NCBI GenBank assembly: GCA_963749445.1
Contig: CAVVMJ010000006.1
Location: 10,979-74,978 of the forward strand
Source: an uncultured bacterium
Lineage (GTDB): Bacteria; Patescibacteriota; Doudnabacteria; UBA920
Direction of reading: 5' to 3'
Length of the DNA: 64,000 bases
The notes beneath the pieces are model-generated. The model had not been told where the DNA came from. It did no database searches and worked only from the letters and a program-made list of their open reading frames with translations. Every line of letters begins with the position of its first letter. Within the stretch, counting starts at the first letter, position 1. Of the stretch, positions 27,907 to 61,800 are shown piece by piece. The translations under genes and the position numbers were made by a program.

Positions 27907-29400
27907 ATGGAAATTGAAGATTTGCAAAATAAACTAATCGCCATTTTGGGGTATGGGCGGGAAGGCAAAGCGGTGACGAAGTATCTATTAAAGCACGGCA
28001 TAAAACCCGTGCTGTTTGATCAAAGGCCTTGGGAAGACTGGGATGAAATTGAGAAATCGGAAATTAGGAAATTGGGGTTAAATTTTATTTTTGGGCCGGA
28101 TGTTTTAAGGAGTTGATAGGGTTTGACGTGGCGTTTAGGAGTCCGGGGATTAGATTATCTGATATTGATCAGATGATGCCCCTCGGCTCAAGTGCGGCCC
28201 GTGCCCGAGGGGCATCATCGGCAGGCTTGGCCATAACATCTCAAACCAAATGGTTTTTTGAGCATTGCCCGTGCAAAATTATCGGTGTCACGGGAACAAA
28301 GGGAAAGGGGACGACAGTAAGTTTGATATATCAAATTTTAAGCTGTAGCGCGCCCATTTATCGGCTTCCAAGGTCGCCGATAAATCGGCACGCTAAACCG
28401 GGGAAACATTATCTCACCGGCAATATCGGCAAAGATTCAGCCTCTGGAGATTCTGGATGATTTGAAGACAGATGATTGGGTGGTTTACGAGCTGTCCAGT
28501 TTTCAACTGCAGGATTTGGACCGCAGCCCTCACGTCGGAGTTGTTCTGATGGTCACGAGCGAGCATTTGGATTATCACGCGAGCCAAAAAGAATACGTTG
28601 AAGCCAAATCGGCAATAACAAAATTCCAAACCGCTGATGATTTTGCCGTAGTGAACGCGGATTTTGAAAATTCAATAAAAATCGGCGAGCTGGGAAAAGG
28701 CAAAAAAATTTATTTCAGCAGACAAAAACTTTTAGGAGAGGGATGTTTTATAAAAGATGACAGCGTTTACTGTAGCGGCACGCCGTGGCGTGCCGAAGAA
28801 AAAGGCATGCCGCGGCATGCCCCTACAAGAGTATGTAACATTCTTGAAATAAAAAACCTACAACTCCGTGGAGCACACAATCTGGAAAACGTCTGCGCCG
28901 CGACCTGCGTCGGCAAGATTTTAAACATCGATGACAAAACCATCACCCAAGCCGTAACGGGATTCAAAGGTTTGGAACATCGCCTGGAATTCGTGACCGA
29001 AAAACAAGGTATAAAATTTTACAATGACTCCTTTTCTACCACGCCGGAAACCGCCATTGCAGCAATAAAATCTTTCGATGAACCATTGATTGTTATTTTA
29101 GGCGGCTCTTCCAAGCACGCAGACTTTACGGACCTGGGACGGACAATTACGGAAAGTAAAAATGTTAAAAGCGTAATTTTGATCGGCCAGGAGGCGGCCA
29201 AAATCAAGTCTGCGATAAATATCGGTAAAATAAAAACCCTGGAAGGCGCAAAAAATATGGCGGAAATTTTTTTCCAAATCAAATCCGTTGCAGCAGCGGG
29301 CGACGTGGTGCTGTTCAGCCCGGCTTGCGCCAGTTTTGATATGTTTAAAAATTACGCGGACCGGGGAAAGCAGTTTAAGTTACACGCTACATCTTTTTAA
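27907..29400 (+). CDS. murD: UDP-N-acetylmuramoylalanine--D-glutamate ligase. It is split into three ORFs by two frame changes (about 28102 in a TTTT run, about 28431 in an AAA run). It also carries three in-frame palindromic insertions.
   Basis: [11 protein letters not shown].., [16 protein letters not shown]-loop, [21 protein letters not shown] and the C-terminal ligase domain, read across frames 1, 0 and 1. Confidence 0.7.
28172..28219. repeat. In-frame palindromic insertion in murD: GATGATGCCCCTCGG..CCGAGGGGCATCATC. It encodes [16 protein letters not shown].
   Basis: Perfect 15-bp arms, absent from canonical MurD proteins. Confidence 0.6.
28344..28395. repeat. Family R2 palindromic element TGTAGCGCGCC-ATTTATCGGC..GCCGATAAATCGGCACGCTA, inserted in frame in murD. 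Intergenic copies at 45962-46011 and 47311-47370.
   Basis: Three copies by direct comparison. This copy encodes [19 protein letters not shown]. Confidence 0.65.
28777..28822. repeat. Family R3 double-hairpin element GGCACGCC-N-GGCGTGCC..GGCATGCC-N-GGCATGCC, inserted in frame in murD. Second copy in the helicase at 59953-59998.
   Basis: Two copies. They encode [16 protein letters not shown] in murD and KARLGVPDKNGMPRHATT in the helicase. Confidence 0.65.
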
Positions 29401-29495
29401 AATTTTTCTATCTTTACTAACTACTAATCAATACTAATATACGAATAGTGCGCTTGTATTAGTATATTCGTAAAAATTAGTAGTTAGTAAAGCCA

Positions 29496-30595
29496 GTGAA
29501 TAAACTTAGCATGATCAAAAAAAAGAAAACCAAGGGCGATTTTAACTGGCCGCTGTTTACCACCCTGATTCTGCTGCTGCTCTACGGGCTGGCGGCGCTG
29601 TATTCGGCTTCCACAGTGCAGTCCTACCAAAACTTCGGCACCACCACTTATTACATTTACCACCAGGTGCTTTACGGCGGCGCGCTTGGGTTGCTTGCGC
29701 TGCTGATTTTTTCTAAGGCCGATTACCACATCTGGCAAAAATATTTACCGGTTTTGCTGATTGTATCGCTGCTGCTTCTGGCCATGGTAAAAATCAGCGC
29801 GTTCGGCTTCAGCTCCGGCGGCGCCGAGCGCTGGCTGCATTTTGGGGCACTGTCCTTCCAGCCTTCGGAGCTGGCCAAGCTGGTGATTATTTTTTACATC
29901 GCCTCCTGGGTAGACAAAAAACGCCGGGCGCTGAACAATTTTTATTTCGGCTTGCTCCCGTCTTTAGTGATTGTGGCTCTGTTTGCCGCTTTGATTTTGT
30001 GGCAGCCGGACTTGGGCACCATGCTGGTTTTGGTGGGCGTGGCCTTAGGCATGCTGTTTGAAGCCGGTGTGGATTTTAAAATTTTTTTTGGCATCGTTTT
30101 GGCCGGCCTGCTGTTGCTGTTTGTGTTTGTCCGGCTGGAACCGTACCGCGCCCAGCGCCTGACCAGCTTTTTTAACCCTTCGGTCGACAAACAAAACGCC
30201 AGCTACCAGATCAACCAATCGCTTTTAGCCATCGGCTCCGGGGAAGTCTGGGGTTACGGCTACGGCCTGTCACGCCAAAAACACAATTATTTGCCGGAAG
30301 CAATGAACGATTCCATTTTTGCCGTGACCTCGGAAGAGCTCGGCTTTGCCCGCGTAATTTTTATTTTGGGCCTGTTCGGCCTGCTGGCGGTCCAGGGTTT
30401 TTTGGTCAGTAGGCGCGCGCCCGACATGTTCGGCAAGCTGGCCGCCGGAGGCATTACCTTATGGATAATTTTACAGGCAGTTGTCAACATCGGCGCCATG
30501 GTTGGTTTGCTGCCGCTTACCGGCATCCCGCTGCCGTTTTCAGTTACGGCAGCACCGCTCTGCTGATTAATCTTGCCGCTATGGGGATTGTGTTT
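29496..30595 (+). CDS. ftsW: Peptidoglycan glycosyltransferase / lipid II flippase of the SEDS family (FtsW/RodA). There is a frame change near 30535 in a TTTT run. The listed ORF stops at 30566, but the true C-terminus reads ..PFVSYGSTALLINLAAMGIVFNISRQGS.
   Basis: Ten TM helices and SEDS motifs. The C-terminal SYGSTALL continues in the adjacent frame. Confidence 0.7.
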
Positions 30596-30629
30596 AATAT
30601 TTCAAGACAGGGGAGTTGATAGAACCTTA

Positions 30630-30745: not shown

Positions 30746-30888
30746 CGGCTTTGCCCGACGAACCCCGGATCTCAGTCCGGGGGAAGTCGGGTCGGGATGG
30801 AGAAACCTCGAGACTAAAATCCATTTATCATGAACATCGGCCAAACTTAGTTTATGGCTTCCTGGTCATACCTGTCTAAAAATAGCAT

Positions 30889-33057
30889 ATGAAGCAACAA
30901 AAATTTAAATTTTACACCCAAAAAGGCCGTTACTTAAATTTTGTCGGGGAGCGGCAAAATTTGACCTGGAAAACCGCGCTGAAAACCTTGCCAAAATTTA
31001 TTTGGGCAATTGTTGTCGGCGTATGCTTTCGCTTCGGCAGCGCGGTCTACGGGTTTTTCAGTCGGTCGCTGGCGTTCATCCAAAAACAGCTTGCCGCGAC
31101 AGCCGCAGCGGCGCGGCAAAGATTAGCCTTGATAAAAAACGGTCATCTGGGTAAAACCCTGGCCACCTTTCTGGTTATCGCGCTTTTGAGTTATGGCGGA
31201 CTGGCCGCGTTTCATTTATTGGCCAAAGGACTGGAGCTCAAAAATCGCCTCGTGAACGTGGCCCTGCTCGGCAGCCAGGATTTAGCTGATGCCAAAAATG
31301 CTTTACAAGATCAAAATTTTAGCGAAGCCGGGGCAAAATTTCAACAGGCTTATCAGGCCTTTGCCACCGGACAAAAACAGTTGGCGGATGAAAACCGCGG
31401 ACTCAACGATTTGCTGAATTTGCTGCCGCAAAAACAGGATTCCGACAAATTGTTCGCGGCCGCGGCGCTGTTGTCGGGCGCGGGCGAGAATTTTACCAAA
31501 GCCTGCCAAAATTTCGGCAGTTTGAGCATTACGGCCGTTGGCCTTTCCGGCAATGGACAAAATAATCCCGATTTAGCCGCTTCCAAAACGCTCATCGATA
31601 CAGCTTTGGCTCAAATTAACCAAGCCGGGAACTTGGTTCAAAGCGTCAACTCCAATTTGCTGCCCGGAGCTTATCGCGAAAAACTGGCGGCCCTGCAGCA
31701 AAATTACGTCATTATCCAGCGGGCTTTTGAGGATTTGCGCGATACCGTAAATTTGGCTTTTGGCCTGTTAAACGGCGACAAGCGCGTACTGCTTTTAATG
31801 GAAAACAATAACGAACTCCGGCCGACCGGCGGCTTTATGGGCACTTTTGGCGATGCCCATATTGTTAATGGCAACCTCCTATCCTTAAACGTCAGCAGTA
31901 TTTACGATTTAGACGGTCAGCTGTCCCAAAAAATCCAGCCGCCGTTTCCGATTTACGCGGTCAATGACCGCTGGTTTTTACGCGATGCCAACTGGTTCGC
32001 GGATTTTCCGTCCACGGCCCAAAAAATCACCCACTTCTACGAACAGGAGGGCGGCCAGACTCCGGACGAGATTGTCGCGTTAACGCCCACGGTTTTACAA
32101 AATCTGCTGGCCCTCACCGGGCCAATCCAACTGCCGCGCTACGGCGTCACTTTGACGCCTGACAATTTTATTGAAACTATTCAAATCCAGTCTTCGATTT
32201 ATTACAATGGCTCGGACAACAAGCCCAAACAAATTTTGGCTGATTTGTTTCCGGTTTTGCTCACGCGGCTCGGCAGCCTGCCCAAAGAACAATTTCCACA
32301 GCTACTGCAGATTATCCAAGACAGCTTTAACCAAAAACAGCTGGTTTTATACGCGCGCGACAACCCAACCGAAACCCAAATCAAAGCCTACAACTGGGGC
32401 GGCGGGATTTTGGACGCTGACCGTGACTATTTAAATATTATCAGCGCCAATTTAAACGGCAGCAAAACCGATTTGTATTTAAAACAAAGCCTTAACCTAA
32501 AAACATCGATTGCCAAAGACGGCCAGCTCACCGACCAGCTCATTATCACGCGCACCAACACCATGCCCGACCTTCCGGGCACGGCCAACGCCAGCTTTAT
32601 CAGGATCATGGTGCCGCAGGGCTCTACGCTCGTCAGCAACGCGGGTTTTGACTATAATACCGGCACGCCTCCGGACACTGCCGGATACCAAACCGACCCA
32701 GATGTTGCGGTCTGGGAACAAAGTATTGTCAAGGATTTTGTCTCCGGCACCAGCATCGGCCGCGAGGCGGGCAAAACTTTTTTCGGCAACTGGCTCACGG
32801 TCAAAGGCGGCCAAACCAAGACCGTGACATTGACCTATAGGTTGCCGTTCAAACTGGCAAGCCTTGATCATTTTAGCCTCTTGGCGCAAAAGCAAATCGG
32901 CGCCCTGCCCGCGGATTTTTCCTACAGCCTGGATTTTCCGGCGCGGCATTTGCTCTGGCAGAATTTTTCGCCGGATAATTTACAGGCTGACCATTTCACT
33001 TATAATTTCAGTTTGGATAAAGACACTTTGCTTGGGGAAGTGTTTGGTGGGTATTAA
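30889..33057 (+). CDS. DUF4012 domain envelope protein
   Basis: N-terminal TM helix and the signature LLLMENNNELRPTGGFMGTFG. Confidence 0.6.
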   Translation: MKQQKFKFYTQKGRYLNFVGERQNLTWKTALKTLPKFIWAIVVGVCFRFGSAVYGFFSRSLAFIQKQLAATAAAARQRLALIKNGHLGKTLATFLVIALLSYGGLAAFHLLAKGLELKNRLVNVALLGSQDLADAKNALQDQNFSEAGAKFQQAYQAFATGQKQLADENRGLNDLLNLLPQKQDSDKLFAAAALLSGAGENFTKACQNFGSLSITAVGLSGNGQNNPDLAASKTLIDTALAQINQAGNLVQSVNSNLLPGAYREKLAALQQNYVIIQRAFEDLRDTVNLAFGLLNGDKRVLLLMENNNELRPTGGFMGTFGDAHIVNGNLLSLNVSSIYDLDGQLSQKIQPPFPIYAVNDRWFLRDANWFADFPSTAQKITHFYEQEGGQTPDEIVALTPTVLQNLLALTGPIQLPRYGVTLTPDNFIETIQIQSSIYYNGSDNKPKQILADLFPVLLTRLGSLPKEQFPQLLQIIQDSFNQKQLVLYARDNPTETQIKAYNWGGGILDADRDYLNIISANLNGSKTDLYLKQSLNLKTSIAKDGQLTDQLIITRTNTMPDLPGTANASFIRIMVPQGSTLVSNAGFDYNTGTPPDTAGYQTDPDVAVWEQSIVKDFVSGTSIGREAGKTFFGNWLTVKGGQTKTVTLTYRLPFKLASLDHFSLLAQKQIGALPADFSYSLDFPARHLLWQNFSPDNLQADHFTYNFSLDKDTLLGEVFGGY

Positions 33058-33073
33058 TCATAAGCTTTACTGC

Positions 33074-33148
33074 CATCCCGGAATTTTTTGCGCAGATGGT
33101 TATCGCAAGCCGCAAAAAATATCCGGGATCCAGATTCTGGATCCCGCA
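33074..33148. repeat. Family R-hp intergenic hairpin element CATCCCGGAATTTTTTGCGCAGATGGTTATCGCAAGCCGCAAAAAATATCCGGGATC (copy 1 of 3). Others at 44583-44668 and 49318-49400.
   Basis: Three near-identical copies, all just 3' of genes. Arms CCCGGAATTTTTTGCG / CGCAAAAAATATCCGGG. Confidence 0.65.
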
Positions 33149-33216
33149 ATTTTTCAGGACCGATAAAATCCCAAAACCTGAAAAATTGCGGGATGACACC
33201 TAAATAAAAATTCATT

Positions 33217-34800
33217 ATGAAATCCTTCTCATCCCTCGAAAACGAATTCACCGTCGGCAAAGCCGCCTTTATTATCGGCATTTTTACTTTGCTGGCCAAG
33301 CTGGTGGCGCTGTTCCGCGACCCGCTGATAATTGCCAAAATCGGGGTGGGGGATTTGTCCGACATTTATTTTTCCGCCTTCCGAGTGCCGGATTTTATTT
33401 TTAATTTGCTGGTTTTAGGCACGCTATCGGTTGCTTTAATCCCCATAATCAGCGAATGGCTGCTAAAAGACAAGGCACGGGCTTACCGGATTGCTAATTC
33501 CGTTCTGAATTTGTCTTTTTTAGTGATGGCCGGAATTTGCCTGCTGCTATTCTTTTTTGCGCCGAACCTCACCAAACTTTTAGTGCCGGGATTTTCCGGT
33601 GAAAAACTTCTCCGCACCACCCAAATGATGCGCCTGTTTTTGCTGTCGCCGGTTATATTTACCTTATCCAACACCTTTAGCAGCATTTTAACTTCCCACA
33701 AAAAATTCCTGATCTTAAGCCTGGCGCCGGTGCTTTATAATCTCGGGATTATTTTGGACTTGTGGTATTTTACCCGCATTTTGGGCTCACTGGCCTGGGC
33801 TGGGGCGTGATTTTAGGCGCGCTTTTACACATGTTTGTCCAATTTTTGGAAAGCCGCCGCCTCGGCTTTGTCTGGCAGCCGATTATAGACTGGCACAGTC
33901 CGGAGCTAAAAAAAATCTTTAAACTGTTTTTGCCCCGCGTCATCGGTATGGATATTTCCCAGGTCAGTTTGATAATTGCCACCACGGTCGGCTCCATTTT
34001 AACCGCGGGTTCGGTCACGATTTTTACCGCGGCCAACAATTTGGCGGCCGTGCCTTTCGGGGATTTTTGCGCTATCCGTAGCCACCGCTTCCTTCCCGCT
34101 GCTGTCGGAATATTTTGCGGCCAAAAACCAAACCGGTTTTTTGGAAACACTCGGCAAAAACATTACCGACGTGCTGTTTTTTATGGTGCCCCTGTCCGTG
34201 TTAATGATTATTTTCCGCGCCTTCATTGTGCGCGTAATTTACGGGCACGGCAATTTTAACTGGGACAACACGATTGCCCTGTTTACGGTATTCGGAATTT
34301 TGACTTTGTCCTTGGTAAGCCAATCGCTAAGTCCGCTGTTTTCGCGCAGCTTTTACGCGCGGCAGAACACCATAATTCCGGTTCGGTCAACGTCTGTTCC
34401 ATTATTTTGAACGGCGGTTTTGGCTTATGTTAGGCAAACGTTTTGGCCTGATGGGCATTGCTTGGGGTTTTGCCATTGCCTGCAGCGTTTGACTCTTTAT
34501 TGATGTTTATTTGTTTGCGCTACCGGCTAAATTAAAGAAGGTTTGTCTTTGATTGATTTTGACAGAACGATAATGGTGTTTATCGGCAAAATTTTGGCCG
34601 CCTCGGTTTTGATGGGTTTTGCTGGCTACGGCGCTCTGTATTTTCTGGCTTCCCGCCTGCAAACCGATACCACAATAGGGAGTTTAATTCAGTCGGCCAT
34701 AGCCGGAATTTTCGCAATTTTGGTTTTTCTGTTCTGCGCCAACAGTCTGGGCTTAAAACAGGCCAAAACCGCCATGGATTTTTTCCGCCGATTAATGTAG
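33217..34800 (+). CDS. murJ: Lipid II flippase MurJ/MviN. It is fragmented into at least four ORFs by five or more frame changes (about 33790, 34075, 34385, 34440-34540).
   Basis: N-terminal motif FIIGIFTLLAKLVALFRDPLIIAKIGVGDLSDIYFSAFRVP. Successive ORFs at 33762, 34141 and 34543 continue the MurJ TM topology. Confidence 0.6.
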
Positions 34801-34821
34801 ACTAGATAAACTATAATTTAC

Positions 34822-34935
34822 CATTTCGAGCCCAATGACCAAGGGCGAGAAATCTATCGTTCCCTGACGTTTCAAATACAGATTCCTCCACTCCTCGCCC
34901 ATTCGGCTACGCTCAGGGCGACCCTGAGTTCAACC
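34822..34935 (+). ncRNA. Copy 2 of the conserved CCATTTCGAGCCCAA-GACCAAGGGCGAGAAATCT motif, in the lepA 5' region
   Basis: See the 30630 entry. GGCTACGCTCAGGGCGA also resembles GGCCTACGCTCAGGGTGA in the 5' region of the 6571 gene at 6527-6544. Confidence 0.3.
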
Positions 34936-34977
34936 GAAAGGGTCGGATGCACTCGTCGGTCGGAATGGAAAAAGATT

Positions 34978-36824
34978 ATGCCCCAAGAAAACATTCGAAA
35001 CTTCTGCATCATCGCCCATATCGACCATGGCAAATCCACTTTGGCTGACCGGCTTTTGGAAATTACCCATACCGTGAGCAGAGGGATATGAAAGACCAGC
35101 TTTTGGACCAGATGGATTTGGAAAGAGAGCGGGGAATTACCATAAAGCTGCAGCCGGTCAGGATGGAATATCGTTTGCCGGATGTAGGGGCGGATACCCT
35201 CCGCCCGAACAATGGGAAGATAATATCTTCCCCTACGCCTTACATCTTGAATCTGATTGATACCCCGGGACACGTTGATTTCACCTATGAAGTCATCCAG
35301 ATCATTAGCCTGCTGTGAAGGCGCGATTTTGGTGGTGGACACCACCCAGGGCATAGAAGCGCAAACTTTGGCTAACGTGCACTTGGCAATGGAGCATAAT
35401 TTGACGTTAATTCCCGTCGTCAATAAAATTGATTTGCCCAATTCCAACCGCAAAAAAACCGCGGAGGAACTAAAAGCCGCCTTTGGGTTTACGGAAGATG
35501 AAATTTTGTACGCATCCGGCAAAACCGGCGAAGGCGTGGAGGAAATTATTAAAGGAAGTCATAGAAAAAGTGCCGCCGCCCAAGGGCGACGAGCAAAAGC
35601 CTTTTAGAGGATTAATTTTTGACTCGCTGTATGATATTCATCGGGGAGTGATAGTATACGTGCGCTGTTTTGAAGGCGAGCTGAAGGCGCGGCAAAAAAT
35701 CTTTGCCATTGGCAGCCAAACCGAGGCGGAAAGTTTGGAGGTCGGCTATTTCCACCCCAAAATGGAAAAACAGCGATGGAATTAAAACCGGCGAAGTCGG
35801 CTATATTGTCACCGGGCTTCGCGACGTGTCAAAGGCGCGGGTAGGCGACACCATTACACTGTTTGACCGCAAAACCGAGTCCAGCAGCTTCCAGGCTACA
35901 AACATATAAAGCCAATGGTTTACGCCACCATTTTCCCGGTATCCGGCGATGATTATCCTATTTTAAGGGACGCGATGAATAAACTAAAGTTCAGCGACGC
36001 ATCCTTGGACTTTGAGCCGATAAACATCCCGTCAATCGGTTTTGGCTTCCGGACCGGTTTCTTCGGCCTTTTCATATGGACATTGTGCAGGAGCGGCTTA
36101 ACGCGCGAATATAATTTAGATTTGGTGCTCACCGCGCCGTCCGTCGCATATCGCATTATTAAAACCAACAACGAAGAACTCTACATCCACAACCCGGCCG
36201 AAATGCCCGATCCCAGCGTCATCAAAGAAATGTACGAGCCGTGGATGACCGTTAACATTTTGACGCCCGCCGAATACATCGGGCCGGTTATGGAAATCGC
36301 CACCCAGCGCCGCGCCATTTCCAAAGACATTAAATACATCGGAAGCTCCCGCGTGGATATGCATTTTGAAATGCCGCTTTCCAACATTATTATAGATTTT
36401 TATGATAAATTAAAATCCGTCTCTTCACGGATACGCCTCGCTCAATTATGAATTTATAGAGGAGCGACTAGGGGATTTGGTTAAAGTGGATATTTTGGTG
36501 GCCGGCGAGCCGGTGCCGGCCTTGGCCGCGCTGATGTACCGCGGCACCGCTGCCAATGACGGCAAAGAACTCGTGGAGAAATTAAAAAAACTGATTCCGC
36601 GCCACCAGTTTGAAATCGCCATCCAAGCCGCCATCGGCGGCAAAATCATCGCCCGCGAAACCATTTCCGCCCTCCGCAAAGACGTCACCGGCTATTTCTA
36701 TGGCGGCGACGTCACCCGCAAAATGAAACTTTTGCAAAAACAAAAAAAGGGAAAGAAACGGATGAAAAGGATTGGAAAAGTTGATATACCTCAAGAGGCG
36801 TTCTTGGCTGTTTTGAAAAAATAA
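34978..36824 (+). CDS. lepA: Translation elongation factor 4 (LepA). It is fragmented into about seven ORFs by frame changes. It also contains an in-frame palindromic insertion at 35184-35236.
   Basis: [75 protein letters not shown], and the C-terminal [40 protein letters not shown]. Confidence 0.7.
35184..35236. repeat. In-frame nested palindromic insertion in lepA: GTAGGGGCGGATACCCTCCGCCC..GGGAAGATAATATCTTCCCCTAC. It encodes [22 protein letters not shown].
   Basis: GTAGGGG/CCCCTAC outer arms and GGGAAGATA/TATCTTCCC inner arms. Absent from canonical LepA G-domains. Confidence 0.55.
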
Positions 36825-43093: not shown

Positions 43094-43996
43094 ATGAAAA
43101 TCGGAATTTTTGACTCCGGCCTAGGCGGGTTGGTAATTGCCAAAGCTATTTTTTCCGCCAAAGGCTCGCCTCGCATTCGCGAGAGCGAAGCGGGCGGACC
43201 CGCCTCTCATTCGAGTCCGAGCGATGCTCGTCCCTCAGAGTCGAGGACCGGCGGGAAAAACTTATCCGCCTATGATTACATCTACTTGGGCGACACCAAG
43301 CGCCTGCCATACGGCAACCGGTCGGCGGATGAAGTTTATAAATTTACCCGCAACGCGGTTAAGTATCTTTTTGACCGTAATTGCCAGCTGGTAATTTTAG
43401 CCTGCAACACAGCCTCGGCTTTGGCATTGCGGAAAATCCAGCAGGAATTTTTGCCCAAGTTTTATCCTGAAAGGCGCGTGCTGGGCGTAGTCATTCCGAC
43501 TTTGGAAGAAGCGGATAAAAATCACAAACAAAAAATCATCGGGGTAATCGGCACGGCAGCAACTATCCGCTCCCATATATATAAGAAAGAACTGATGAAA
43601 ATTGACCCCAACGCAAAAATTATTGAGCTGGCAACGCCAAAATTAGTGCCACTAATTGAACAAAATGCTTTACAAAAGGCAGAAAATGCCTTAAAATTAT
43701 ACTTAAAGCCGCTTCAAAAACAGGGGATTGGAGCGCTGATTTTAGGTTGTACCCATTACCCGATTTTAGCGCGGCAGATAAAAAAAATCGTCGGCAAAAA
43801 AATTAAAGTCGTTTCGCAAACCGACTTTCTTCCAAACAAACTCGGCGACTATTTAAAACGGCATCCGGAAATAAACAGCAAGCTGTCAAAAAGCCGTAAG
43901 CGACTATTTTTGGTAACCAATTATAATCACAAATTCGGCGAAGTGGCAAAGAGGTTATTTGGAAGAAGTTTGGAGTTTAAGGTTGTAAGTTTATAA
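43094..43996 (+). CDS. murI: Glutamate racemase carrying an in-frame, roughly 30-aa GC-rich insertion at about 43163-43255
   Basis: IGIFDSGLGG, ACNTASA and GCTHYP motifs. The insertion is GSPRIRESEAGGPASHSSPSDARPSESRTGG. Confidence 0.8.
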   Translation: MKIGIFDSGLGGLVIAKAIFSAKGSPRIRESEAGGPASHSSPSDARPSESRTGGKNLSAYDYIYLGDTKRLPYGNRSADEVYKFTRNAVKYLFDRNCQLVILACNTASALALRKIQQEFLPKFYPERRVLGVVIPTLEEADKNHKQKIIGVIGTAATIRSHIYKKELMKIDPNAKIIELATPKLVPLIEQNALQKAENALKLYLKPLQKQGIGALILGCTHYPILARQIKKIVGKKIKVVSQTDFLPNKLGDYLKRHPEINSKLSKSRKRLFLVTNYNHKFGEVAKRLFGRSLEFKVVSL

Positions 43997-44004: not shown

Positions 44005-44125
44005 GCAGAGCTCTCTCCTCTTGAGGAGAGATGTCCCGACTTCAGTCGGGACAGAGAGGTTGCAGTAATCGGCGATGGATACAACCTCTCCCCAACCCTC
44101 CCCTCAGGAGGGGAGGGGGCTCCGA
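44005..44125. repeat. Multi-hairpin GC-rich element, a variant of the R4 family: CTCTCCTCTTGAGGAGAG / GTCCCGACTTCAGTCGGGAC / CCCTCCCCTCAGGAGGGGAGGG
   Basis: Four consecutive perfect hairpins immediately upstream of the tRNA-Thr. Confidence 0.5.
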
Positions 44126-44306: not shown

Positions 44307-44567
44307 ATGGAAAATTCGCCAAAAGAACCGGACAAACCTCCTAAGAACCCCGAGCAAAAACTGGTCGGCATACTAATGCTGGAAGCGGGGATAGAGTTTG
44401 CCTTTTTAATTGCCGCGCCGCTTTTGGCCGGAGTGCTGGTTGGCAAATGGCTAGATGACAAATATCATCATAATTTCTTCGTGATTATCGGGATTTTAGC
44501 CGGATTAGCCATAACCTGCTTTGCGATTTACAAAAGAATTATTGATTACAAAAAGATGCTTAAATGA
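44307..44567 (+). CDS. AtpZ/AtpI-like small membrane protein preceding atpB
   Basis: Two TM helices. Position and pattern LIAAPLLAGVLVGKWLDDKY. Confidence 0.45.
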   Translation: MENSPKEPDKPPKNPEQKLVGILMLEAGIEFAFLIAAPLLAGVLVGKWLDDKYHHNFFVIIGILAGLAITCFAIYKRIIDYKKMLK

Positions 44568-44582
44568 CCGCCCTGCGGCGGT

Positions 44583-44668
44583 CATCCCGGATTTTTTTGC
44601 GCTGATGATTATCGCAAGCCGCAAAAAATATCCGGGATCGAAAAAATAGATTCCGGATATTTTGCAAA
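44583..44668. repeat. R-hp hairpin element copy 2
   Basis: GTCATCCCGGATTTTTTTGCGCTGATGATTATCGCAAGCCGCAAAAAATATCCGGGATCG. Confidence 0.65.
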
Positions 44669-45563: not shown

Positions 45564-45737
45564 GTAAATGGTTATAGGTTATAGAAACCAGTATAGTTGT
45601 AAGTAGTAAGTTATAGGTTACTTAAACCCATAAACTTATTACCAAACTGGTTTCCATAACTTATAACTATTAACTCACACAAGGCGACATTAAACAATAA
45701 TATAAACTGTCGACCAACTGTGAAAAGAAGGAAACTT

Positions 45738-45961: not shown

Positions 45962-46011
45962 TGTAGCGCGCCCAATTTATTGGGCTGCAGCCGATAAATC
46001 GGCACGCTACA
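45962..46011. repeat. R2 palindromic element, intergenic copy
   Basis: TGTAGCGCGCCCAATTTATTGGGCTGCAGCCGATAAATCGGCACGCTACA. Confidence 0.65.
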
Positions 46012-46183
46012 TTAGGTTTTAGAACTGATGATTGTCGCTTTGACGATCATCAGGATTTACAACTTAAAATACCTCTACTAAATACTAAAGTATACTAAAA
46101 GTACGAAATACGAAACAGAAGTTAGCTAGTTTAGTATTTAGTATATTTAGTACCTTTTAGTATTTAGTAGAAGAATATAACCC

Positions 46184-46744: not shown

Positions 46745-46884
46745 CCACGGAGTTTCTCCTCCTTTCAAAGGAGGAGTACCCGCCACAGGCGGGGGAGGTG
46801 GTGAAATAAAACGCAGGCCAAACTCCAACCACCCCGTCGGCTATCGCCGCCACCCCTCCTCAGCAAGGAGGGAAGCTCCGCAGT
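46745..46884. repeat. R4 composite multi-hairpin element, intergenic copy A (module order 2-1)
   Basis: ..GAGTTTCTCCTCCTTTCAAAGGAGGAG..GGGGGAGGTGGTG...CTCCAACCACCCCGTCGGCTATCGCCGCCACCCCTCCTCAGCAAGGAGGGAAGCTCCGCAG. Confidence 0.65.
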
Positions 46885-46904: not shown

Positions 46905-47315
46905 ATGCCCAAACTTACCTCAAACCAATACGCCCAAGCGCTGTTTGAAGCAGTTACGGAAACCCATCCCAAAGACCACGACGCGGTTTTAGATAATTTT
47001 GTGCGGATTTTGGCGCAAAACGGGGATTTGGGAAAATACGATGAAATAGACGCCGAATTCCGTAAATTAAAATTATCATCCGAAGGTATAAAAGAAGCCA
47101 AAGTGACCGTTGCAAGGGAAGCCGAGTTGAACCATCAGATCATCCAAGAATTAAACGCTGTAGTGCAGGCCACCGGCCTGCCCGCCAAGCTGGAAATCAA
47201 GCAAAAAATTGACCAATCCATAATCGGCGGCGTGGTAGTACGAGTGGACGACACGCTGATTGACGCGAGCGTAAGAACGCAGTTGAATAATTTAAATAGA
47301 GAATTAAAACTGTAG
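46905..47315 (+). CDS. atpH: F0F1 ATP synthase subunit delta (short, 136 aa)
   Basis: Operon position and the C-terminal pattern IIGGVVVRVDDTLIDASVRTQL. Confidence 0.6.
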   Translation: MPKLTSNQYAQALFEAVTETHPKDHDAVLDNFVRILAQNGDLGKYDEIDAEFRKLKLSSEGIKEAKVTVAREAELNHQIIQELNAVVQATGLPAKLEIKQKIDQSIIGGVVVRVDDTLIDASVRTQLNNLNRELKL

Positions 47316-47370
47316 CGCGCCGATTTATCGGCTGGATTTATTACTGCAGCCCATAAATGGGTACGCTACA
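47311..47370. repeat. R2 palindromic element, rearranged intergenic copy
   Basis: TGTAGCGCGCCGATTTATCGGC..GCAGCCCATAAATGGGTACGCTACA. Confidence 0.6.
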
Positions 47371-47802: not shown

Positions 47803-49302
47803 ATGGCCTCAACAAACATAGTAGAACAACTAAAAAATAAAATCGCCGCGTTCCAGGCGGACGTGAGGGTAGAAAAAGTCGGGACAGTTTTGGAGGTGGG
47901 GGACGGCGTGGCACGCGTGAGCGGGCTTAAGGATGCCGCCAGTATGGAAATGTTGGATTTCGGAAACGGAGTTTTTGGCGTGGCGCTGAACCTGGAAGAA
48001 AGCGTTATCGGCTCCATCATCTTGGGCGATTATACGCATATTAAAGTCGGGGACACGGTACGTTTGACAGGAAAAATTTTGTCCGTGCCTGTCGGCGAAG
48101 CGGTTGTCGGCCGCACCGTAAGCGCGCTTGGCGAACCTAAGGATGGTAAGGGGCCGATTAAATCAGACAAATTTTATCCGACAGAAAAAATCGCGCCGGG
48201 CGTAATCACGCGCCAAAAAGTCAGCCAGCCGGTGCAAACCGGCATCAAAACCATTGACTCGCTTATTCCAATCGGCCGCGGCCAGCGAGAACTGATTATC
48301 GGCGACCGCCAAACCGGCAAGACCGCCATTGCCATAGACACCATCATCAACCAAAAAGGCCAGAATATGATTTGCGTTTACGTAGCTATTGGCCAAAAAG
48401 AAAGCAAGGTTGCCAAAATTGTCGCGGAACTGGAAAAGCACGGCGCCATGGAATACACCATTGTGGTCTCGGCTTCGGCTTCGGATCCGGCCGCTTTGTC
48501 TTATATTGCGCCGTACGCGGGTTGCGCGATGGGCGAATATTTTATGGACCAGGGTAAGGACGTGTTGGTGGTTTATGATGACCTGTCCAAGCAAGCGGTT
48601 GCTTATCGTGAGATATCACTTTTGCTCCGCCGCCCGCCGGGACGCGAAGCTTATCCCGGTGATGTGTTTTATTTACATTCCCGATTGTTGGAACGCGCCG
48701 CAAGATTAAATAAAGATTTTGGCGGCGGGTCATTAACGGCTTTGCCGATTGTGGAAACCCAGGCCGGCGACGTTACCGCTTACATTCCCACTAATGTGAT
48801 TTCAATTACTGATGGACAGATATTTTTGGAAACCGATTTATTCTATAAAGGCATCCGCCCGGCATTAAACGTCGGCATTTCCGTTTCGCGCGTCGGCGCA
48901 GCCGCGCAGACAAAAGCGATGAAGAAAGTCGCCGGCAAATTAAAACTACAATTGGCGCAATTCCGCGAATTGGAAGCCTTTGCGCAGTTTGGCTCCGATC
49001 TAGACCCCGAAACCCAAAGGCAACTTGACCTTGGCCGCCGCATGACCGAAGTCCTAAAACAGCCGCAATACACGCCTTTTGCCTTGGAAAAAGAAGTTAC
49101 AGTCCTTTACGCGGTCAACAACGGCTACTTTAATCCAATTCCCGTTGAAAAAATGGCGGAAACCGAGAGCAAATTTCACCAGTATATGTCCACCCAAGCC
49201 AAAGACGTCCTGGAAGAAATCCGCACCACCCGCGAACTCTCCGACTCCACGGAAGCCAAATTAAAAAAGGCAATTGAACAGTTTGTGCAGACGGTAAAAT
49301 AA
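47803..49302 (+). CDS. atpA: F0F1 ATP synthase subunit alpha
   Basis: [16 protein letters not shown]-loop and alpha-type flanking motifs. Confidence 0.9.
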
Positions 49303-49317
49303 CCCGCCCGACGTGTC

Positions 49318-49400
49318 CATCCCGGAATTTTTTGCGCAGATGGTTATCGTGAGCCGCAAAAAATATCCGGGATCCAGACTTAAGCTCGTCTCTGGATCCC
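49318..49400. repeat. R-hp hairpin element copy 3
   Basis: CATCCCGGAATTTTTTGCGCAGATGGTTATCGTGAGCCGCAAAAAATATCCGGGATCCAGACTTAAGCTCGTCTCTGGATCCCGG. Confidence 0.65.
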
Positions 49401-49415
49401 GGCTCTCGGCTGCAC

Positions 49416-49715
49416 TTGGCCGGGATGGAACGATTAAGATTTAAAAATATGTCGGAAGACTTTAGGAAAAAACTATCAAGCGCATCAAAGGAGTTGGGGA
49501 TAGAACCAACACCAGAAGGCCAAGAACCGATTATTGGAATTGGTAATAGAATTAGTTTTTTTATTTCCGCCCCAACAGGTGCCGGACGTTATCAAGAACA
49601 TGGAATTATTACAAGCAAACGAACAGATGAAAACGGAACTTTTATTACCCTGGATGATAGGAAGCAGATAGAATTTAGGGTAGAATCAATGGAAGAACTA
49701 AAAAAGATTCAATAA
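49416..49715 (+). CDS. Small hypothetical ORF inserted between atpA and atpG
   Basis: 99-aa AT-rich ORF that ends 2 nt before the atpG start. Confidence 0.3.
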   Translation: MAGMERLRFKNMSEDFRKKLSSASKELGIEPTPEGQEPIIGIGNRISFFISAPTGAGRYQEHGIITSKRTDENGTFITLDDRKQIEFRVESMEELKKIQ

Positions 49716-49717
49716 TT

Positions 49718-50765
49718 ATGCCAGGTATTAAAGAACTTAAAACCCGAATAAAGTCCATTAGCGGCACGCGCAAGGTGACGCGGGCTATGCAAATGGTGAG
49801 CGCGGCCAAGATGCGCAAGAGCCAGGACGCTACTTTACGCAGCCGATCGTACGCGAGTTTGGCGTGGGAGCTGATTGGGAATTTGTCATCATTTAGTGAA
49901 ATTGCGAGGAGTGCACCCGACGAAGCAATCCCATCAGATGACGAGACTGCTTCGGCTGCACTCGCAGTTTCCGACTTGCTTAAAATCCACCCCAAAGCCA
50001 CCAAAATCGCGGTTTTAATCCTCACAACCAACAGGGGAATGGTGGGAAGTTTGAATACGAATTTAATAAATTTAGTCCAAAAAACCATCAACGAATCAAC
50101 ACTTAGCCCTAACACCTTAGCCCTTAGCCCTGACTACATCACCTACGGCCGCAAAGGCCGCGACGTCATGGTTCGCAGCCACAAAGAAGTCCTGGCAGAC
50201 TTTGAAAAATTTGACCGCACAATTTCCACGGAAGATATTTTTCCAATTTCAAAACTTATTACCGAATTATATTCTTCGGACAAATACCAAAAAGTTTTGA
50301 TTTTTTATAACCATTTTGTGTCCACGTTAACGCAAAAACCGACGGTAAAGCAGTTGCTGCCATTTACTCCAACCACCCCGTCGGCTAACGCCGCCACCCC
50401 TCCTCTGCAAGGAGGGAAAGCTCCGCGGTTATCCCGCAATACCGCGGAGCCTCTCCCCCTGCCAAGGGGGAGTACCGCCGAAGCGCGGGGAGGGGGTTGG
50501 AGAAGCAACCGATTATCTTTTTGAACCAAATCCTAAAGAAGTTTTTGAGCACCTCTTGCCCCGCATCATCGAATCCCAAATTTACCAAACCATCCTGGAA
50601 TCCGAAGCCTCCGAGCAATCCGCCCGCATGGTCATGATGAAAAACGCCACCGAAGCCGCCGGAGATTTAATATCCGATCTGACTTTAACCTACAACAAAT
50701 TAAGGCAGAATAAAATAACCACCGAGCTTGCCGAGATAACAGCAGGTAAGATCGCTTTGGAATAA
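49718..50765 (+). CDS. atpG: F0F1 ATP synthase subunit gamma. It contains an in-frame TTAGCCC-type insertion at 50102-50132 and an R4 composite element at 50367-50502. The frame changes within the R4 element, so the listed ORFs split at 50524 and 50556.
   Basis: N-terminal ELKTRIKSISGTRKVTRAMQMVSAAKMRKSQ. C-terminal DYLFEPNPKEVFEHLLPRIIESQIYQTILESEASEQSARMVMMKNAT is readable only in the second frame. Confidence 0.75.
50367..50502. repeat. R4 composite element, copy B, inside atpG (module order 1-2)
   Basis: CTCCAACCACCCCGTCGGCTAACGCCGCCACCCCTCCTCTGCAAGGAGGGAAAGCTCCGCGG..CCGCGGAGCCTCTCCCCCTGCCAAGGGGGAGTACCGCCGAAGCGCGGGGAGGGGGTTGGAG. Confidence 0.7.
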
Positions 50766-50768: not shown

Positions 50769-51143
50769 ATGAAAAATAGATCTGATTACAGCGACCCCGA
50801 AAAAATCAAGGCAAGCACAACTTACAAAAATAGTTTACTAATGCGTCTTGCAGGGGGAATATGGAATAAACTTTACGGCTCAACGCCAGACGGGGCAAAA
50901 CAATTTTCTCAAGATCGGAGAAATCAATCGGGAAAATTTAAAGAAGCTTCAGGCCATCTACAGTCACCAGAAACAGCACTAGAGTATGCAAGACAACTTG
51001 GAATCGAAAATGAGGAATTAGCAAAGATACAATACGAGGCATTAAATGACGCATCACGGTTAGGGGATATTTACGTGGCAGGATCACCCGAAGAACTTGG
51101 TCAAATAGTCAAAGATTTATCCAAAAAGAAGCCAGTTAGTTAA
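50769..51143 (+). CDS. Small hypothetical ORF inserted between atpG and atpD
   Basis: 124-aa ORF with no recognisable domain. Confidence 0.3.
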   Translation: MKNRSDYSDPEKIKASTTYKNSLLMRLAGGIWNKLYGSTPDGAKQFSQDRRNQSGKFKEASGHLQSPETALEYARQLGIENEELAKIQYEALNDASRLGDIYVAGSPEELGQIVKDLSKKKPVS

Positions 51144-52712
<1,569 letters not shown>

Positions 52713-52724
52713 AATCTAAACCTT

Positions 52725-53024
52725 ATGGTAAGTAGACAAGAAATGATAAATTTTGGTCAAGACTCCATAGGGAGGGAAAACCCACCCTTGCCTTATGATA
52801 TGGAAAAATTAGAGACTAGATTTAATATGCTTAGCAAGTCACCCCGAAAATTAGAAATAGCCGGTTTATGGGCGCAAAATCTGACAGCGCCTAAAATTGC
52901 TCAGATCACCGGTTTAACTAAGCATATGGTCGAATCACACATACACGAGATTTACGCCCATTTTTTAATTCACTCAAAGCGAGAGTTACAGGATGTCTGG
53001 AAACTCCTGCACCAAAATTCTTAG
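52725..53024 (+). CDS. Small LuxR/GerE-type HTH protein inserted between atpD and atpC
   Basis: LSKSPRKLEIAGLWAQNLTAPKIAQITGLTKHMVESHIHEIYAHF matches LuxR-family HTH spacing. Confidence 0.4.
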   Translation: MVSRQEMINFGQDSIGRENPPLPYDMEKLETRFNMLSKSPRKLEIAGLWAQNLTAPKIAQITGLTKHMVESHIHEIYAHFLIHSKRELQDVWKLLHQNS

Positions 53025-53490: not shown

Positions 53491-53497
53491 ACAAAAC

Positions 53498-53637
53498 GCG
53501 GAGCCTCTCCTCCTTCTCAAGGAGGAGTACCGCCCGCAGGGCGGGGAGGTGGTTGGAGTTGCTGACGGTAATACTCCAACCCTTCCGTCTCGCTGCGCGA
53601 TCCACCTTCCCTTTTTAAGGGAAGGAAGCTCCGCGGA
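53498..53637. repeat. R4 composite element, intergenic copy D (module order 2-1)
   Basis: CGCGGAGCCTCTCCTCCTTCTCAAGGAGGAGTACCGCCCGCAGGGCGGGGAGGTGGTTGGAG...CTCCAACCCTTCCGTCTCGCTGCGCGATCCACCTTCCCTTTTTAAGGGAAGGAAGCTCCGCGG. Confidence 0.65.
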
Positions 53638-56149: not shown

Positions 56150-56151
56150 CT

Positions 56152-58373: not shown

Positions 58374-58374
58374 T

Positions 58375-58430: not shown

Positions 58431-58432
58431 GT

Positions 58433-58813: not shown

Positions 58814-58867
58814 CTTTCGTAGATTTTTTCGTAGTTTCAGTTTTATTTCGAAGTTTCGCATTTATAA

Positions 58868-61800
58868 ATGAACAAACTTCTTGAGAACTTAAATGACGAA
58901 CAAAAACAGGCGGTCACGCATGGCGGCGGGCCGCTTTTGATTGTGGCCGGGGCGGGAACGGGGAAGACGACCGTGATAACAAGGCGGATTGCTTATCTGA
59001 TTGAACAGGGTTTGGCAAAACCTGATGAGATTCTGGCGCTGACGTTTACCGACAAAGCGGCCGGGGAAATGCGGGAACGCGCCGATTTATTACTGCCTTT
59101 GGGCTACTACGATATGTGGATTTCCACTTTCCACAGCTTTTGCCAGCGGGTTTTGGAACAGCACGGCCTGGACATTGGTTTACCCGGGGATTTTAAACTG
59201 CTTAACGAAACCCAAGGCTGGATACTTATCCACAACAATCTGAACAAGTTTAATTTGGATTATTACCGGCCTTTGGGCAATCCCAAAAAGTTCATTTCAG
59301 CTTTGCTAAAACATTTTTCGCGATGTAAAGATGAATTGATTACGCCACAAAGCTATCTGGAATATGCGCAGGGTTTGAGGCTGCAAACGGACATCCCAAC
59401 AAGGGCTAAGCGTGTAGGGCTAAGCGCTAAGTCGCAAAACCTTAGCCCTAGCCCCTTAGCCCTTAGCCCTGAAACTGAAATCTCCCGCCTGGAAGAAATC
59501 GCCAACGCTTTCCATGTTTACCAAAAGCTGCTGCTGGACAATAATTTTTTGGATTTTGGAGATCTGATAAATTACACCTTAGACTTGTTCAACAAGCGCC
59601 CCAAAATTTTGCAATTTTATCAGGAAAAATTTAAATACATTTTGGTGGACGAATTCCAGGACACCAATTACGCCCAATACCAGCTGGTAAAACTATTGGC
59701 GGCTGATGACAAAAATCTTGCCGTCGTCGGCGACGACGACCAGTCCATTTATAAATTCCGCGGCGCCTCAGTTTCCAACATTTTAAAATTTAAGGATGAT
59801 TTTCCCCGGCTCAAACAGATTACCCTTACGGAAAATTACCGCAGCGGGCAAAAAATTCTAGACTTGGCCTATGATTTTATCCAGGCCAACAACCCCGACC
59901 GGCTGGAGGTGAAATTAGGCATTAATAAAAGATTGCGTTCAAATAATGTAAAGGCACGCCTCGGCGTGCCTGATAAAAACGGCATGCCACGGCATGCCAC
60001 TACAAGGACAATCGAGGTACTGGAAGGCAAGGATTTAAGCGAAGAATTAAACCTAATCGCAACCACCACCAATCGGCTCAAATCGGAAAATCCCGATTCA
60101 ACCTGGAACGATTTTGCAATACTGCTTCGCAGCAACGCCGCGGCACTGGAAATTTTGCCGGTGCTGTCCCAGCACAACATTCCGCACACCTTTGTGGCCA
60201 ATACCGGCCTATACCAAAAGCCGCTGGTTGCCGATCTCATCGCGTATTTGCGCTGCCTGAATAATTTCCACGATTCCTTCGCGCTTTACCGCGTTCTGTC
60301 TTTTCCGGTCTTTCAATTTCCGTCCCGGGATTTAGCCACACTTTTGGCCAACTCGGATAAAAGAACTTTGTCGCTTTATGAAATGCTCAACGCGGCCAAA
60401 ACTTTGACCGCCATAGGCCAAGGCAGCCAAAAAACAATAGAAACAGTTTTGGCGTCTTTGCATCGGCACGCCAAACTGGCACAGGAGAAATCGGCTAACG
60501 AGGCTTTTGTGGAGATTGCCCGCGATTTGCAAATCCAAAAAATGCTGGAGGCAGACAATCTGGAAAACGCGGAAAACCGCGAACTGTTGGAGCAATTTTA
60601 CAAAAAAATTGAAAGCTTCGTGCAAGAGAACGCCGACAAAAGCCTGCACCATTTTTTGCATCTGCTGGAGCTGGAACAGGAAGCGGGGGACGAAGGGCAG
60701 ATTAAATTTGACCCGAATCTTGGGCCGGAATGCTTAAAAGTCCTGACTGTGCATTCGGCCAAAGGTTTGGAGTTTGAAAACGTCTTCATCCCAAACCTTG
60801 TGGAACAGCGTTTTCCCACCCGGGCCAGGGGCGAGCAAATCGAAATCCCAACCCCGCTGATTAAAGACATTCTACCGGAAGGGGACTTTCATTTGCAGGA
60901 AGAACGAAGACTATTTTACGTCGGCCTGACCCGCGCCAAAAGCCGCCTTTATTTGTCCTGGGGCAAAGATTACGGCGGAGCCAAAACCAAACGCCCATCG
61001 CTTTTTTTGCAGGAAACCAAATTGGTGCCCGGGCCGCACACCACCGAGGCCACCGGCAAGGTAATTTTTTCCCAGCCCGTTAAAAAAACCCAAAGCGATG
61101 TCATGCTGCCGGCTTCTTTTTCCTTTTCCGGCATCAAAGCCTTCCAAACCTGCCCCCTGCAGTATAAGTATCAATATTATCTCAAATTACCCCTGCCCGG
61201 CAGCAGCTACTTCAGCTTCGGACAGACCATGCATAAAGTTTTTGAGTTGTATTTAAAGGATTACCAATCGCGCAAAAATCAAAACCAGCAAGACCTGTTT
61301 GGCAAAAACCCAAAACAAATTGCGCCCGGGGATTTTAAGCTGCTTGAAGAACTTTATGAAAAATATTGGATTGATGAGTGGTATAAAGATAAAAAACAAA
61401 AAGAAGATTACCGAAAAAAAGGCAGGGAAATTTTAAAAATCTTTTATGATTACACCGCCGCCCATCCGCCGCGTCCAAAATATCTGGAGCAGTTTTTCTC
61501 TTTGCCTTTGGGCGGCTATAAATTCGTAGGCAAAATTGACCGGGCCGACGAAAGCCAAGGCGGCTTGGAAATTATCGATTACAAAACCGGCGAAAACATC
61601 CCGGCCAAAAACGACAAGGACGGCTTGGACCAGCTGCACGTTTACCAGTGGGCCGCCGAAGAGTATTTAAAGGAAAAAGTCTCGGGGTTAAATTACTGGT
61701 ATTTGCAAAACCATAAATTTTTGCCCGAACAAACTGCCGACGCCAAAGAGATTAATGGATTGAAAAATCGGCTTTTGGAAACAATTGAACTTATTGTCCA

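Follow-up and report, generated by a model that had tools for sequence, protein, structure and literature searches.

Hairpin-forming repeats read in frame within housekeeping genes of a Doudnabacteria-like genome

Palindromic repeats that are read as part of the genes in which they lie are known from Rickettsia, as the Rickettsia palindromic elements (RPEs) of families RPE-1 to RPE-10 (Ogata et al. 2000, 2002, cited through PMC10969869 and PMC3733652), of which R. conorii has, by the account in PMC10969869, 44 copies, nearly half of them in open reading frames (ORFs). A second system is that of the repetitive extragenic palindromic sequences (REPs) headed by GTAG, the signature of REPs associated with Y1 transposases of the REP-associated tyrosine transposase (RAYT) type. 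Such REPs are imperfect GC-rich palindromes of about 20-40 bp, often paired head-to-head or tail-to-tail (REPIN/BIME) and dispersed in many copies, and their movement is attributed to RAYT enzymes. Di Nocera et al. (2013) described intragenic REPs and dimers of REPs, most abundant in Opitutus terrae, that encode 20-30 aa within genes for helicase, ligase and tRNA synthetase, with the RPEs of R. conorii as a CGTC-tagged counterpart (PMC3733652). Bacterial MITEs, transposable elements of the miniature inverted-repeat type, can also fuse in frame with genes, among them the Coxiella QMITEs (PMC5896051) and the ERIC, Correia and Anabaena MITEs (PMC10969869), and a 2024 MITE review still presents RPEs as the extreme case, going no further than speculation on other prokaryotes (PMC10969869). 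Here we analyse a 64-kb stretch of contig CAVVMJ010000006.1 (the window, in whose numbering all positions are given), which constitutes the data for this genome, together with short loci fetched from other genomes (L numbers) and homologous proteins (P numbers). Protein searches with AtpD, MurD and a helicase from the window give their best matches in metagenome-assembled genomes (MAGs) of Candidatus Doudnabacteria/Patescibacteria, and the window very probably samples a Doudnabacteria-like genome of the candidate phyla radiation (CPR) into which short, non-autonomous repeats of the REP/RPE/MITE kind, GC-rich and hairpin-forming and belonging to several families, have spread.

Four of the element types, namely R2, R3, an element in lepA and a perfect palindrome at 10803-10831 (+ strand, read as VGEGLKPSPT in the P/Q-rich tail of an ORF), are short GC-rich stem-loops with stems of 7-13 bp and strong folds, all bounded by GTAG...CTAC, and are GTAG-tagged REPs arranged as inverted dimers. 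They resemble the intragenic GTAG REP dimers already described in this architecture, in encoding about 17-19 aa within genes (20-30 aa were reported in PMC3733652), in their hosts, which here include a UvrD/Rep-type helicase, a DNA ligase and a tRNA synthetase, and in the presence of a RAYT-like gene in the window. They differ in that CPR/Patescibacteria lie outside the groups listed for such REPs (Proteobacteria, Cyanobacteria, Chloroflexi and the Planctomycetes-Verrucomicrobia-Chlamydiae superphylum; PMC3733652), in that the window's RAYT-like gene is flanked by unrelated terminal inverted repeats (TIRs), as in TIRtrons, and not by REPs as in REPtrons, and perhaps in their location. GTAG REPs are mostly extragenic, just 3' of ORFs; the window has seven copies of the GTAG type, five of them genic (the two others start at 45963 and 47312), in a sample that is small and chosen by the finding itself.

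The likeness to RPEs is one of working: unrelated housekeeping genes contain palindromic repeats in frame at sites compatible with the fold, every family has its conserved peptide, there are coding as well as intergenic copies, and some insertions are common to related species. The elements are nevertheless not filed as RPEs, as the host is an unrelated CPR bacterium and the ends are GTAG, ACTCCAACC or others and not CGTC. Other differences are that most elements measure 36-57 nt with only R4 (138 nt) of RPE size, that one loop can serve several families in turn, and that about 12 genic copies in 32 kb amount to a far higher local density; the R. conorii genome, for comparison, measures about 1.27 Mb. 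Like MITEs, the elements are non-autonomous, have terminal inverted repeats and strong structure (ACTCCAACC...GGTTGGAGT in R4) and can add peptides to proteins, but they are much smaller than most MITEs and neither a target-site duplication nor a parent insertion sequence was found for them. Hairpin inserts in the conserved protein genes of a reduced genome also recall organelles. Yeast mitochondria carry GC clusters and 'byp' elements, the latter bypassed and not translated. Coding palindromes with long perfect inverted repeats occur in the mitochondria of Nematomorpha (PMC6649704); unlike these organelle palindromes, the copies described here are in frame, stop-free and consistent in their reading frame.

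The kind of element is therefore already known from RPEs and intragenic GTAG REPs; novelty lies in the lineage and the families, in how dense they are locally and in the re-use of hot spots. An earlier reading of this DNA from its letters (the sequence-only reading) had proposed an analogy with RPEs, as selfish palindromes tolerated in frame in housekeeping genes, and knew of no equivalent in a CPR-type genome. Recurrence, orthologs and gaps in structural alignments support the analogy, but RPEs are neither the sole nor the closest precedent, since intragenic GTAG REPs and their dimers are known in several phyla outside Rickettsia (PMC3733652). For CPR genomes, searches of the full-text literature on CPR/Patescibacteria with palindromic, MITE or in-frame elements found no description.

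Insertions in conserved genes

The atpD gene (51171-52712, +) is intact and encodes 513 aa, compared with 453-491 aa in homologs, and contains two elements that are read through in frame. The upstream one, atpD1 (51228-51263, +; GGCGGGTCCGCC..GGCGGA core, 12 aa), is a clean 36-nt insertion relative to L001, the atp operon of a close relative with about 80% nucleotide identity to the window, and peptides of its type stand at the same site in P0002, P0004 and P0098. The other, atpD2 (51316-51445, +), is an in-frame R4 copy of about 43-45 aa that stands in place of a different palindrome in L001. Compared with 6q45_D, the inserts of 12 and about 45 aa fall in two beta-turns of the N-terminal barrel of F1-beta, and a weak AlphaFold2 model (20-sequence alignment, mean predicted local distance difference test score (pLDDT) 47, used for the N-terminal barrel only) leaves both unstructured (pLDDT <50) between confidently modelled barrel strands. 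The second turn has been filled differently in different genomes, by R4 in the window, R3 in L009 and P0072, R5 in P0029 and P0069 and the other palindrome in L001, and it exceeds a minimum of 8-9 residues in about half of 82 parsed homologs. Six AtpD homologs (P0012, P0061, P0062, P0066, P0069 and P0099) show N-terminal extensions of an 11-letter type before the conserved NKG start; here a GGCGG/CCGCC element just upstream of the true atpD start has evidently been swallowed by gene callers.

Insertions are equally evident in murI and in the gene for a UvrD/PcrA-like helicase, both with intact ORFs through which the elements are read in frame. In murI (43094-43996, +; 300 aa) a 102-nt insertion (43154-43255, +), composed of two composite hairpins and containing the GGCGGACCCGCC motif, adds 34 aa that are absent from all ten aligned orthologs; nearly all of the matches listed among representative proteins align in two stretches that skip the insert. 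In 2gzm_A its place is the alpha1-beta2 junction, between residues 24 and 31. The helicase gene (58868-61879, +; 1003 aa) contains hel2 (59948-60003, +), an R3 copy with a degenerate 5' tag GTAA and a 3' CTAC, read as VKARLGVPDKNGMPRH and corresponding to 16 aa missing from the closest helicase orthologs, and hel1 (59401-59472, +), a TTAGCCC-type palindrome in a linker that is hypervariable in all orthologs and brings zero net gain in length over P0241. The helicase orthologs P0241, P0248, P0255, P0270 and P0298, from other assemblies, have divergent, frameshifted-looking C-terminal tails, so that the clade may have either indel-prone assemblies or frequent real frameshifts.

Three elements lie in atpG (49718-50765, +), all at alignment gaps of the gamma structure 9itj_G. 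An R5 palindrome (49901-49966, +), missing from the sequence-only reading, is read as IARSAPDEAIPSDDETASAALA; R5 copies lie within ORFs of the metagenome loci L014 and L015, and the peptide in P0029 and P0069 is of the same type. The second element, atpG1 (50102-50133, +), is a one-arm half copy of the TTAGCCC repeat, read as LSPNTLALSP and 94% identical to one arm of the helicase copy (59441-59472), and lies in a hypervariable linker with a net gain of about 4 aa over 9itj_G. The third, atpG2 (50366-50502, +), is an R4 head-to-head dimer of 136-137 nt with a five-way junction, which replaces a 37-nt tandem-repeat segment of L001. It had been thought to be read through in frame, but as sequenced it is not: compared with the in-frame 138-nt copies (atpD2, L003, L004) it has two separate 1-nt deletions that take the frame from 2 to 1 to 0, so that the host frame is lost within the R4 copy and the C-terminal helix is found in another frame, while the gamma sequence downstream is intact and conserved. 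Neither an A added to GGGAAAG nor a slippery site is the source of this frameshift, since relative to the three in-frame copies the position is a substitution.

The murD gene (27909-29400, +) runs in three frames, with shifts near 28105 and 28437 where DNA alignment with L017 and L018 shows a missing T and an extra G, respectively. Its first element, murD1 (28172-28219, +), is a 48-nt palindrome with a perfect 15-bp stem, encodes 17 aa and is single-copy in the window; it is also present in L017, where the stem has undergone a compensatory change from G:C to T:A, and absent from L018. The R2 copy murD2 (28345-28396, +; 17 aa), a GTAG-hairpin dimer with a degenerate 3' tag CTAA, is shared with L018, and its site is filled in P0122, P0124 and P0125 and vacant in L017. 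The R3 copy murD3 (28772-28826, +; 18 aa), a tail-to-tail GTAG-REP dimer, is found in the window and in neither L017 nor L018, and the site is filled by another palindrome (VGAGLKPAPT) in P0121, P0122 and P0129. The presence of the three elements is thus incongruent among the window, L017 and L018, which calls for repeated gain or loss. In lepA (34978-36824, +), broken by at least eight single-base indels when counted against an intact ortholog, none of the indels lies within the element (35184-35236, +; 18 aa), a two-hairpin, GTAG...CTAC-bounded structure. At the exact site of this element the lepA of L012 carries R3, and the two have in common only GTAG, a central AACAATG and CTAC. The three murD sites and the lepA site are therefore read through in frame locally, as had been claimed, but in genes that are broken elsewhere by indels; these breaks are probably assembly errors.

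Such single-base indels are clustered, at 27909-29400 (the two in murD), 33217-36824 (those of lepA and at least two in the murJ-like gene) and 50366-50502 (the two in the R4 copy of atpG), and they also occur outside homopolymers. As judged from the sequence, they are probably local consensus errors of a poorly polished assembly and not marks of pseudogenes, because ORFs of 800-1376 aa are intact elsewhere in the window and conserved protein sequence is kept in every frame-shifted piece of murD, lepA and atpG; real frameshifts or pseudogenisation may be the alternative. A database MurD fragment of 306 aa is 100% identical to that of the window, so the deposited sequence has the same broken murD.

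Over all sites, every genic copy except atpG2 is in frame and stop-free. The inserts are rich in Gly, Pro, Ser, Ala and Arg, as first noticed from the letters (60% compared with 37% in the host proteins), and the proposed loop positions are borne out by alignment gaps between secondary-structure elements of the F1-beta, gamma and MurI structures. If the segments had been conserved native sequence they should recur in orthologs, where the sites are instead empty or differently filled: empty sites are seen for murI, hel2, atpD1 and murD1-3, and atpD2 and atpG2 replace other inserts. A clean insertion cannot be claimed for hel1 and atpG1, whose linkers are hypervariable and gain little or nothing in net length, and the label 'essential genes' given to the hosts is loose for lepA and the UvrD-like helicase. 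Strong dyad symmetry is a property of nine of the 11 coding sites originally listed, with minimum free energies (kcal/mol) from -26 to -81 (murD1 -32, murD2 -28, murD3 -36, murI -48, lepA -27, atpD2 -80, atpG2 -81, hel1 -34, hel2 -26); the palindrome of atpD1 is weak (-9.8) and atpG1 (-0.8) alone is not a palindrome. The window as a whole has 71 perfect hairpins with a stem of at least 8 bp, compared with 11-17 in shuffled sequences.

Repeat families in the window and in other assemblies

Within the window the copies of a family, two to four in number, are 80-97% identical. Repeat comparison upheld most of the family relationships seen at first sight: R3 is common to murD (murD3) and the helicase (hel2), the TTAGCCC type is common to atpG and the helicase, and R2 has one coding copy (murD2) and two intergenic copies, unstranded like the other intergenic elements, at 45963-46010, just after atpE and also found in L016 and L001, and at 47312-47369, after atpH. 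R4 has two coding copies (atpG2 and atpD2) and two intergenic ones, at 46748-46883 between atpF and atpH and at 53497-53636 after atpC, with R4-type elements in L001 at both of these places, and there is a divergent, four-hairpin variant at 44005-44125, upstream of tRNA-Thr and conserved at L001 620-760. The GGCGG/CCGCC block is indeed shared by murI and atpD, but its extent is merely that of a motif of about 15 nt. GTAG ends are absent from R4, R5, the TTAGCCC type, murD1, the murI insert and atpD1, which are REP/RPE-like in behaviour only.

The assignment of R3 to the GTAG REPs draws on its copies elsewhere. A scan pattern that specified only the four inner half-sites, leaving the flanks unspecified, matched 12 metagenome loci, eight of them in long ORFs (TypA/BipA, AtpD, LepA, LigA, CarB, AspS, PurL and an Fe-S protein). 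GTAG nonetheless flanks 11 of the 14 copies and CTAC all 14, which makes R3 a tail-to-tail dimer built of GTAG-tagged stem-loops; like R2, it has the form GTAG-hairpin, spacer, hairpin-CTAC. This evidence is stronger than a census of the window, in which five GTAG...CTAC elements compare with about 1.9 in shuffles, a modest excess taken alone. R3 encodes EARRGVPxxxGMPRHA, and peptides of R3 and R4 together are found in 14 different host genes. All ten non-redundant genic R3 copies have the same orientation, with the 3' half always GMPRHA, although the reverse frames are stop-free at least as often (expected forward fraction 0.455, P ~4e-4 for 10/10); this bias may arise from selection on the peptide or from strand-specific insertion. 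On a 92-kb metagenome contig an R3-like dimer (L006 3248-3289) lies in an Fe-S protein, in a GC-rich and possibly non-CPR organism, among peptide motifs (AHRDAP) typical of other GTAG REPs, which suggests that the R3 stem type is not restricted to CPR.

R4 is a 138-nt element of five hairpins. Its coding copies form a five-way junction closed by ACTCCAACC/GGTTGGAGT, and the intergenic copies are a circular permutation closed by CGCGGAGC/GCTCCGCG; the two forms are the two possible inverted-dimer arrangements of a unit of about 60 nt. In the intergenic arrangement there is an AT-rich spacer that contains stop codons; this can account for genes having copies of the other arrangement only. Base pairing is preserved while the sequence changes: module B varies from copy to copy and always pairs (GCCGCC/GGCGGC, GTCCGC/GCGGCC or GTCCAGC/GCTGGAC), and in the last hairpin two pairs covary. 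The copies are also mosaic, the left half of atpG2 being 96% identical to the intergenic copy at 46822 and its right half 97% identical to atpD2. Scanning with the coding-type pattern revealed R4 in two further Doudnabacteria MAGs, one of them MFD04434.bin.1.36, a naming style that we take to indicate a long-read project; there the 138 nt lie, in frame, within genes for a Zn-dependent dehydrogenase (L003) and for a GT2 glycosyltransferase (L004) and are read as TPTTPS...GEGVGV, the same reading as in atpG and atpD. Rfam searches, of the whole window at gathering thresholds and of 43.9-53.8 kb at E up to 1, returned tRNAs and chance microRNA matches only, and the multi-hairpin elements are thus not a known RNA family.

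Origin and persistence of the elements

In the assembly of events that we favour, copies would land in intergenic DNA and in genes alike, and genic copies would persist only if their net length is divisible by three, no stop arises in the host frame and the site is a permissive loop. Survivors would be transcribed and translated as Gly/Pro/Ser/Ala/Arg-rich loop decorations of conserved proteins, and copies would turn over by gain, loss and replacement between close relatives, with the consequence that the same loops come to hold different families in different genomes. Mobilisation may be as single-stranded DNA hairpins by a Y1/HUH enzyme of the RAYT type acting in trans.

A candidate for such an enzyme is encoded at 15156-16097 (+), a RAYT-like Y1 (HUH) transposase with a DnaA_C-like tail that matches Y1_Tnp and scores 79.6 bits against REP_Tyr_transpos, for which the cut-off is 80. 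The gene is flanked by inverted repeats at 15103-15118 and 16095-16110 / 16166-16181 (GGGGTCAAGTCTATAT, D3 family) that are unrelated to the GTAG REPs, and a role for it as mobiliser of the elements is unsupported; the locus resembles the TIRtron class of PMC3733652 and not the REPtron class. It lies inside a cassette array (11500-16200) of nucleotidyltransferase/HEPN-like ORFs of the toxin-antitoxin type, each cassette being bounded by a repeat of about 52 nt ending in AGACTTGACCCC (copies at 11867, 12611, 12896, 13784, 14693, 16083 and 16154), and stands between inverted copies of the array motif, in a TIRtron-like arrangement.

Several observations weigh against colonisation by mobile repeats as set out above. 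The window contains no cognate RAYT flanked by the same REPs (a REPtron), tblastn found no further Y1 genes in any of the fetched loci, and no target-site duplication or target motif was seen at four R4 borders and 14 R3 borders. Copy counts are those of 64 kb and short loci; atpG2 is out of frame in this sequence; translation of the inserts and a near-neutral effect on the proteins are what we infer; and murD1 and the murI insert, single-copy in the window and without GTAG, could have another origin. The recurrent occupation of the same loops by different families, moreover, is more than random insertion and selection alone suffice to explain.

This last point gives some room to the view that the repeats are more than tolerated junk, and that they either insert or replace one another in a directed manner at pre-existing GTAG-bounded palindromes (homing) or have hairpins with a function in cis. 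Loop re-occupation, the maintenance of hairpins by compensatory change or cassette replacement, and the fixed orientation and frame would together imply homing or a role of the hairpin in cis, as DNA or as RNA, inside the genes; we regard this as a tentative possibility, rather doubtful at present. Local origin by template switching or hairpin-primed repair, followed by homogenisation through gene conversion without dedicated transposition, would account for the mosaic R4 copies, for sites at which different families share only GTAG, spacer and CTAC, for the lack of a target-site duplication and cognate transposase among our findings, and for coding R4 copies less than 5 kb from intergenic ones. 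It is unlikely, since near-identical R3 and R4 stand in many unrelated genes of several genomes, gene conversion requires a homologous target already present at each site, and the strict bias in orientation and frame together with a canonical RAYT-type GTAG tag fits directed mobilisation better. The segments might also be native, fast-evolving low-complexity loops or linkers that are palindromic by chance and were never inserted as mobile DNA, as could be imagined for the linkers of hel1 and atpG1, which differ among all orthologs in both length and sequence and have zero net gain in the window, and for the second AtpD turn, so often longer than its minimum. Against this stand DNA of 80-97% identity recurring in unrelated genes and in intergenic DNA, the clean empty sites in close orthologs of murI, hel2, atpD1 and murD1-3, and the conserved GTAG/CTAC tags; the idea is refuted for the multi-copy families and decidedly improbable overall.

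It is very hard to believe that the elements go untranslated, being cut out of the mRNA or skipped by the ribosome in the manner of small introns or of the mitochondrial 'byp' elements of Magnusiomyces. Such a process would explain how atpG2 breaks the frame while the gamma sequence beyond it remains intact and conserved, but neither excision nor bypass has need of the stop-free, in-frame condition and single reading frame that the other genic copies display, here and in ten other genes; the defect of atpG2 consists of two 1-nt deletions, lepA and murD have similar indels away from their elements, and there is no ribozyme or intron match in Rfam. Artefacts of assembly or amplification, such as chimeric hairpins, deserve practically no credence. 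The clustered single-base indels do suggest an imperfect consensus in the window, yet the same families occur at defined positions in independent JGI, ENA and NCBI assemblies of different samples, and the elements are visible in deposited protein sequences.

Colonisation by mobile hairpin repeats, which remains the most probable account, has consequences for how CPR genomes are seen. The genomes of CPR/Patescibacteria are small and usually regarded as streamlined, and a repeat load of this kind is unexpected; it suggests that selfish hairpin DNA shapes CPR proteins far more than has been appreciated. The elements inflate and diversify the 'conserved' marker proteins used in CPR phylogeny, give rise to spurious N-terminal extensions and ORFan peptides in annotation, and flag loops that tolerate 12-45 additional residues. 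Families of fixed frame and fixed orientation across metagenomes are also a tractable test bed for REP movement and for repeated hits on one site. If homing were true, the loops of essential proteins would be heritable landing pads, and if either homing or a cis function were true, a genome-wide density well above that of Rickettsia would follow.

Surrounding genes and further repeats

The region from 28 to 60 kb, in which nearly all genes are on the + strand, contains murD, ftsW, a gene for a DUF4012 protein, the murJ-like gene, lepA, murI and tRNA-Thr, and then the atp operon, tRNAs, rmuC and the helicase gene. The atp operon includes additional small ORFs at 49353-49712, 50769-51143 and 52713-53021. 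A 124-aa ORF between atpG and atpD is without counterpart in L001, which has a GerE/sigma-70 region 4-like ORF between atpD and atpC, where the window has the ORF at 52713-53021.

Other palindromes lie between genes. The D2 family comprises three nested palindromes, 72-95% similar, at 33045-33200, 44554-44665 and 49289-49430, with the layout ATCCCGGA-TTTTTTGCG...CGCAAAAAA-TCCGGGAT; its copies stand directly 3' of the stop codons of the DUF4012 gene, an atpI-like gene and atpA, and are possibly a terminator or a REP-like 3' element. AT-rich intergenic palindromes with arms of 36-48 nt occur at 29412-29492, 45564-45674 and 46069-46176, and as the one at 45564 is 78% identical to L016 5995-6099, these long AT-rich palindromes are also a dispersed family. 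Finally, a GC-rich palindrome at 62036-62115, which would be read as SCHPERAKRAEGSL.., lies directly upstream of an ORF start and is dispersed-repeat-like.

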